The notes below the pieces were generated by a model that was given only the letters and a program-made list of their open reading frames with translations, searched no databases and had not been told where the DNA came from. A stretch of DNA of 64,000 bases. Origin: Escherichia coli. Lineage in GTDB: Bacteria; Pseudomonadota; Gammaproteobacteria; Enterobacterales; Enterobacteriaceae. The DNA lies in the NCBI RefSeq assembly GCF_045037415.1, contig NZ_CP173438.1; one strand, given 5' to 3'. Positions 9,866 to 9,888 of this stretch are shown here, in pieces. Positions within the stretch are counted from its first letter, which is position 1; every line of letters starts with the position of its first letter. The position numbers and the translations under genes were made by a program.

Positions 9866-9888
9866 AAGATGCATTTAAAATACATCTT
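9866..9888. promoter_or_regulatory. NsrR operator in the ytfE promoter
   Basis: Near-palindrome aagatgcatttaaaatacatctt ends 27 nt upstream of the ytfE ATG; it matches the remembered NsrR-box architecture (AAGATGCATTT / AAATACATCTT half-sites). Confidence 0.75.

Follow-up and report, generated by a model that had tools for sequence, protein, structure and literature searches.

The 23 bases at positions 9866-9888 are almost certainly the operator through which NsrR represses ytfE. (Positions refer to the window, by which we mean the whole stretch of 64,000 nucleotides of E. coli DNA that we analyzed.) This site is real and was already known, and an earlier note on this DNA, which called it well-established biology, interpreted it correctly. 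Our basis for the assignment is the match of the sequence to the NsrR motif, the uniqueness of this match in the window, the conservation of the box and its fixed position across the family, and an intact nsrR gene. The occupancy of the orthologous site, the derepression that depends on nitric oxide (NO) or nsrR, and the chemistry of the cluster are taken from the literature, and we expect them to hold here by analogy.

The box and its match to the NsrR motif

Read directly, positions 9866-9888 are AAGATGCATTTAAAATACATCTT (the same string is also given as aagatgcatttaaaatacatctt). This is a 23-bp inverted repeat of the 11-1-11 type, AAGATGCATTT-A-AAATACATCTT, and as an operator it has no strand. 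A repeat finder reported arms at 9866-9876 and 9878-9888, each of 11 nt, which are complementary at 10 of 11 positions (91%) and are separated by a gap of 1 nt. The left half-site, AAGATGCATTT on the plus strand (9866-9876), is the top-scoring 11-mer half-site in the window, with 15.7 bits. The right half-site, AAGATGTATTT on the minus strand (9878-9888), is the second best, with 15.0 bits. At position 7 of the right half-site, T replaces C, which is the same as A replacing G at position 17 of the box (9882). The one imperfect position of the palindrome is not a defect: it is polymorphic, and it coincides with a degenerate (Y/R) position in the consensus.

The spacer between the box and the ATG of ytfE is 26 bases (9889-9914), so the last base of the box lies 27 nt before the A of the ATG. 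The near-palindrome that had been noticed 27 nt upstream of the start of ytfE is confirmed by our reading of the sequence, by the repeat finder, and by the ytfE open reading frame, which begins at 9915.

To score the box, we used a weight matrix derived from 27 published NsrR sites of the 11-1-11 type from E. coli CFT073 (Table 4 of Mehta et al. 2015, PMC5320621). After excluding the ytfE site and a duplicate, we symmetrized the matrix of the remaining 25 sites and used it to scan the window. On this leave-one-out matrix, the box scores 30.6 bits, which exceeds all 25 of the training sites (12.2-26.8 bits). The second-best 23-mer in the window has 17.4 bits, so the box is ahead by 13 bits. For comparison, the maxima of random 64-kb sequences with the same dinucleotide content (a set of 200 sequences, and then a set of 300) had a mean of 13.7 ± 2.2 bits, and the largest was 21.5 bits. 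The earlier note had named a scan with an NsrR matrix as its refuting test. With 9866-9888 as the single outstanding match in the window (30.6 versus 17.4 bits), this test comes out clearly for the site.

The box also fits both of the published forms of the consensus. It has no mismatches to GATGYAT-N5-ATRCATC (Rodionov et al. 2005, PMC1274295), and it has one mismatch to the 11-1-11 consensus AANATGCATTTNAAATGCATNTT, for which just 0.03 chance matches are expected at 3 or fewer mismatches. Together with the 11-1-11 repeat, these matches bear out the claim that the sequence has the architecture of an NsrR box.

Could the palindrome nevertheless be a chance feature, without function, of an AT-rich intergenic spacer? 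The spacer between ytfF and ytfE is only 36% G+C, and AT-rich spacers do yield weak matches, such as the 17.4-bit match in the ulaA/ulaG spacer. But among 20,000 random sequences that matched the ytfF-ytfE spacer in composition, none reached 30.6 bits, and the largest score was 24.2 bits. Also, the box is at the same position in all 80 of the other species that we considered (see below), with 15 of 23 columns invariant, while adjacent synonymous sites have diverged. The conservation and the score statistics refute a chance palindrome, and we assign this explanation a negligible probability.

The second-best match to the full matrix, TAATTGCATTACACATTCAATTT at 31154-31176 (17.4 bits), lies in the divergent intergenic region between ulaA and ulaG. 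We rejected it as a further NsrR site: chance alone can account for its score (P = 0.06 per 64 kb), and the ChIP-seq study of CFT073 reports no ula peak (PMC5320621). Of the other genes in the window that we looked up in the text of this paper, purA, cycA, aidB, msrA, yjfY, hflX, and ytfK are absent, as are ulaA and ulaG themselves, and rnr is named only in an unrelated list of mutants. This agrees with the presence of one strong match to the matrix in the window.

A weak third 11-mer has been listed for ytfE by Mehta et al. (PMC5320621), with a distance of 128 and a score of 4.07. It corresponds to positions 9783-9793, AACTGAATCTG (reverse complement CAGATTCAGTT), which are part of the 3' end of ytfF.

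NsrR and ytfE are together at the core of the nitric oxide response of enterobacteria, and our results leave this picture unchanged. The value of the site is mainly as a control for the reading of regulatory motifs from raw sequence. The earlier note had offered it as a positive control in this sense, and the site that was picked out by eye is borne out by the leave-one-out scan, by cross-species footprinting, and by published ChIP-seq. Its reading that NsrR controls ytfE is likewise supported, by the motif scan, the identity of the site in K-12, the ChIP-seq data from CFT073, the conservation of the site in 80 of 80 species, and the intact nsrR gene. Our small additions are the frequencies of alleles in and next to the operator and the finding that even bases that NsrR does not need are invariant.

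Conservation and natural alleles

We examined the conservation of the box in 80 ytfE loci, with one genome per species and at least 90% identity between the YtfE proteins. Including the window, this gave 81 sequences. The genera sampled were Escherichia, Enterobacter, Citrobacter, Klebsiella, Raoultella, Kluyvera, Kosakonia, Lelliottia, Buttiauxella, Cedecea, and others. In each of the 80 loci, the top-scoring 23-mer of the full sequence (up to 4.6 kb) is 24-27 nt upstream of the ATG of ytfE, with a score of 24.3-31.4 bits. When the 81 sequences are anchored on the box, 15 of its 23 columns show no variation. The positions that vary are 4 with 20, 7 with 17, 21, and 14, which are symmetric positions at which the consensus is degenerate.

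Across these 81 sequences, the columns of the box have a mean information content of 1.80 bits. This can be compared to 1.81 and 1.89 bits for the first and second codon positions of ytfE, 0.82 bits for 48 four-fold degenerate sites of the adjacent coding sequence, and 0.99 bits for the 30 nt upstream of the box. In a bootstrap analysis with 23 four-fold sites per draw, 0 of 100,000 draws reached the value of the box. The box is under purifying selection that is as strong as the selection on the YtfE protein.

The pattern of variation also bears on whether the inverted repeat acts as RNA, either as the terminator of ytfF or as an element in the 5'-UTR of ytfE, instead of as a DNA site for a protein. 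The arms can pair in RNA, and the minimum-free-energy fold of 9856-9914 includes this stem. But this fold has a free energy of -8.8 kcal/mol, as compared to -6.5 ± 2.3 kcal/mol for shuffled sequences (z = -1.0), and an equally low or lower energy was obtained for 31 of 200 shuffles. The stem is rich in A and U, no run of U follows it, and a terminator scan found nothing at this location. Furthermore, there is no compensatory pattern in the substitutions that distinguish the species: positions 7 and 17 of the box vary independently, as Y and R, which fits the degeneracy of the half-sites and does not fit base pairing. An RNA hairpin is extremely improbable as the explanation for the repeat.

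Another conserved block lies 10-22 nt upstream of the box, at 9844-9856, where most columns are about 90% or more conserved across the 81 species. The cross-species consensus of this block is AAAGGGGTATAGC, and the window has AAGGGTTATAGC. In most species it is preceded by CCCC, which makes a CCCCnAAAGGGG mini-hairpin possible. The block could be a remnant of a ytfF terminator, a promoter-upstream element, or the site of another factor.

Within E. coli, a segment of 301 bases that surrounds the site has matches in 5,415 of 5,426 complete genomes. We counted the alleles in and beside the box by searching these 5,426 genomes for exact 61-mers that span the box; the remaining genomes differ elsewhere in the 61 bases. 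At positions 9882 and 9891, the K-12 type (A/C) was found in 1,787 genomes, the CFT073 type (G/C) in 875 genomes, the type in this window (A/A) in 573 genomes, and G/A in 39 genomes. Taking each position by itself, 9882 (position 17 of the box) is A in at least 2,360 genomes and G in at least 914 genomes. Position 9891, which is 3 nt downstream of the operator, is C in at least 2,662 genomes and A in at least 612 genomes.

Among the 81 species, position 17 of the box is G in 43 and A in 38; this is the Y/R position of the ATGYAT consensus. At 9891, the window has A (giving TATATT), whereas K-12 MG1655 and CFT073 have C (giving TATCTT). Since A is found in 79 of the 81 species of Enterobacteriaceae, the C allele, although common in E. 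coli, is derived. The window has the rarer A/A haplotype and retains the ancestral TATATT.

The probable core promoter of ytfE

The box contains a candidate -10 hexamer, TAAAAT, on the plus strand at 9876-9881, which matches TATAAT at 5 of 6 positions. Across the 81 species, these six positions are TAAAAT in 55, TAATAT in 24, and TATAAT in 2. The central base of the box (9877) is A in all 81 species, and published NsrR sites have A, C, G, or T there. An alternative candidate for the -10 is TATATT, also on the plus strand, at 9888-9893. It starts at the last base of the box and also has 5 of 6 matches to TATAAT. The six positions are TATATT in 68 of the 81 species and TATAAT in 5, and A9889 and T9890 are invariant even though they lie outside the box.

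We did not find a convincing -35 for either candidate: a relaxed enumeration of hexamers gave nothing better than 3 of 6 matches. A sigma-70 scan of 9700-10700 did not report a promoter upstream of ytfE, and we found no transcription start for ytfE in the full-text literature, or in the supplements of genome-wide papers, that we searched. The inverted repeat was reportedly placed over the -10 of ytfE by Bodenmiller & Spiro in 2006, which would favor TAAAAT as the -10. Given this placement and the positions of the hexamers, we infer that the operator overlaps the -10. TAAAAT (9876-9881) is probably, though by no means surely, the -10 of ytfE, while TATATT (9888-9893) is a reasonable possibility for this role. 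Whichever of these hexamers is the -10, the operator would lie on the core promoter of ytfE. Further downstream, a Shine-Dalgarno-like GAGG is found on the plus strand at 9903-9906, 8 nt before the ATG, and each of its columns is kept in 68-79 of the 81 species.

With one -10-like hexamer inside it and another at its edge, both with invariant key bases, the box might be conserved only as the core promoter of ytfE (as its -10 region) and not for the binding of a repressor. But a -10 cannot account for the invariant A1, A2, G3, T5, and G6 in the left arm of the box or for their symmetric partners C18, A19, T22, and T23 in the right arm. It would also leave unexplained why the box matches sites at the unrelated promoters of hcp, hmp, and ygbA. 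We therefore consider it extremely unlikely that the sequence is a promoter element and nothing else. Most likely, the functions of operator and promoter overlap rather than exclude each other.

The invariant central A (9877), together with the conserved TATATT at the edge of the box, may point to constraints from RNA polymerase that are laid over the NsrR motif. A more speculative idea, which we think is unlikely to be correct, is that the operator and the promoter form a single overlapping code that is tuned by the natural alleles at 9882 (A/G) and 9891 (A/C). If so, these alleles might alter how tightly ytfE is repressed and how strongly its promoter fires, with differences between lineages.

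A different regulator might also be the primary user of the box. At hmp, the sites for NsrR and FNR overlap, and the box upstream of ytfE might primarily be a site for FNR, Fur, IscR, or NarL/NarP, with its likeness to NsrR sites being secondary. FNR sites have the form TTGAT-N4-ATCAA, there are two types of IscR sites, and NarL/P sites are pairs of heptamers in a 7-2-7 arrangement. Reading the box directly for these motifs, we found no TTGAT-N4-ATCAA, neither of the IscR cores (GACT/AGTC and CC/GG), and no 7-2-7 pair of heptamers. According to a review, ytfE is de-repressed in fnr mutants and in fur mutants, but there is no recognizable Fur or FNR site in the ytfE promoter, and these effects are thought to be indirect (PMC9268430). 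Also, ChIP-seq shows that NsrR occupies the orthologous site in CFT073 (PMC5320621). It is very unlikely that the box is primarily the site of one of these other regulators.

If the box is the NsrR operator, as we believe, then repression could work as follows. NsrR is a homodimeric repressor of the Rrf2 family with an iron-sulfur cluster, and the two winged-helix domains would read one 11-bp half-site (AAGATGYATTT) each. Since the box probably lies on the core promoter, with TAAAAT inside it and TATATT abutting it, bound NsrR should block RNA polymerase; the exact geometry of the occlusion and the identity of the -10 hexamer are predictions. NO would nitrosylate the cluster, which would cause NsrR to leave the DNA and would allow ytfE to be transcribed.

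The genes for the repressor and its target

The gene for the trans-acting repressor, nsrR, occupies 44240-44665 of the minus strand; it starts with GTG and encodes 141 amino acids. This assignment is from the open reading frame and from NF008240: the protein matches this equivalog family with 292.8 bits (the cut-off is 182) across residues 1-141 of 141. The earlier note placed nsrR at these coordinates, which the match to NF008240 supports, but the strand and the start need to be added, as the gene is on the minus strand and begins with GTG. (The translation of 44240-44665 on the plus strand has 5 stops.) The cysteines that ligate the cluster (Cys91, Cys96, and Cys102) are present in the protein, and Asp8 can be read from the aligned sequence. 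The gene lies 34 kb away from the operator and its product acts in trans, so the presence of nsrR in the same window is incidental to the mechanism.

Near the start of nsrR, at 44692-44702, there is a lone NsrR-like half-site, AAAATACATTT, with 13.4 bits, which is third in the window after the two halves of the ytfE box. It precedes the GTG by 27-37 nt and falls at the start region of a promoter that was predicted on the minus strand (GCGACA-16-TATCAT, 44736..44709). By chance, a 64-kb sequence should contain about 2.6 half-sites that score this well, and the ChIP-seq paper on CFT073 does not mention a peak for nsrR or purA (PMC5320621). The half-site is probably due to chance, with autoregulation of nsrR by way of it as a less likely alternative.

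The ytfE coding sequence (9915-10577, plus strand) was identified from its open reading frame, its NCBIfam match, and the RefSeq annotation of collinear strains. It encodes a di-iron RIC/YtfE protein of 220 amino acids, which matches the NCBIfam equivalog NF008221 with 416.7 bits (the cut-off is 254) across residues 1-219 of 220 and matches TIGR03652 with 268.7 bits. The description of ytfE as an Fe-S repair gene, in the earlier note, follows the annotation but has been challenged. In the view of Crack et al. 2022 (PMC9052748), YtfE is a nitrite reductase, which generates NO and feeds back on NsrR, and these authors describe YtfE and NsrR as acting like a two-component monitor of nitrite. If YtfE does make NO, then derepression through the operator at 9866-9888 would close a positive feedback loop. 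The ytfE promoter has been used as a reporter or biosensor for NO in EHEC (PMC7336997).

Downstream of ytfE, there is a G+C-rich hairpin with an 11-bp stem at 10585-10609, between the convergent genes ytfE (which ends at 10577) and cycA (which ends at 10622). Since only the cycA strand has a T-run, this hairpin is clearly the terminator of cycA, and it may or may not stop transcripts from ytfE.

The window as a whole is a piece of the E. coli chromosome, from tamA to mscM, and its gene order is that of strain AR_0086. Between ytfB and rplI there is a block of accessory genes (~13804-23987) that encode a TetR regulator, a 3-ketoacyl-ACP reductase, a sugar-phosphate isomerase, an enoyl-CoA hydratase, a CoA transferase, a FAD oxidoreductase, an MFS transporter, an HTH protein, and a HipA-family toxin that is split into two open reading frames (22226-22987 and 22987-23493). 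Just 1,648 of the 5,426 E. coli genomes cover at least 80% of 13900-23900. The window also contains several RNAs with Rfam matches above the gathering score: the ES036 and STnc450 sRNAs at 1679-1858, between msrA and paeA; the ES239 sRNA at 5210-5332, on the minus strand upstream of cpdB; the RpsF leader at 25826-25910; and three tandem tRNA genes at 58194-58489, which are annotated as tRNA-Gly in a collinear strain.

The NsrR site of ytfE in K-12 is reportedly described by Bodenmiller & Spiro in 2006 and by Partridge in 2009. It had been predicted by Rodionov in 2005 (PMC1274295). K-12 MG1655 shares with the window all 23 bases of the box, its spacing from the ATG, and ytfF and cycA as flanking genes; the one substitution is the C at the position that corresponds to 9891. 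The comparison with the K-12 promoter that the earlier note proposed thus finds the box to be identical, base for base.

The box in CFT073 differs from that in the window by one base. It has G at position 17, which makes it a perfect palindrome (31.4 bits, versus 30.6 bits here). It is at the top of the published list of 11-1-11 NsrR sites, with ln P = -25.13 (Mehta et al. 2015, PMC5320621), and the summit of the NsrR ChIP-seq peak in CFT073 (5049151, PMC5320621) is 12 nt from the center of the orthologous box. In CFT073, ytfE is induced 69.6-fold by NO that is derived from nitrate (PMC5320621), and in a Salmonella nsrR mutant, ytfE mRNA is up 544-fold (PMC2884951).

The best solved relative of the NsrR in the window is NsrR from S. 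coelicolor (5n07/7b0c, E = 1.5e-19). This protein is about 39% identical to E. coli NsrR (PMC9052748). It is also an Rrf2 dimer, and its three Cys ligands and Asp8 align with those of the protein in the window. The structure of its [4Fe-4S] dimer on the hmpA1 operator, which is an imperfect palindrome of 23 bp, has been solved (PDB 7b0c; PMC9338935). Helix 3 is in the major groove, and at each end the minor groove holds an arginine from the wing; when the cluster is destroyed by NO, the DNA is released (PMC9338935, PMC5411485). S. coelicolor NsrR does not bind E. coli operators, and several of the residues that contact DNA differ in E. coli NsrR (PMC9338935), so the atomic details do not transfer.

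The NsrR operators of hcp, hmp, ygbA, yeaR, and tehA in E. coli, all of which are outside the window, share the 11-1-11 structure of the ytfE box and the AAnATGyATTT consensus, but they are weaker, with 20-27 bits as compared to 30.6 bits on the same matrix.
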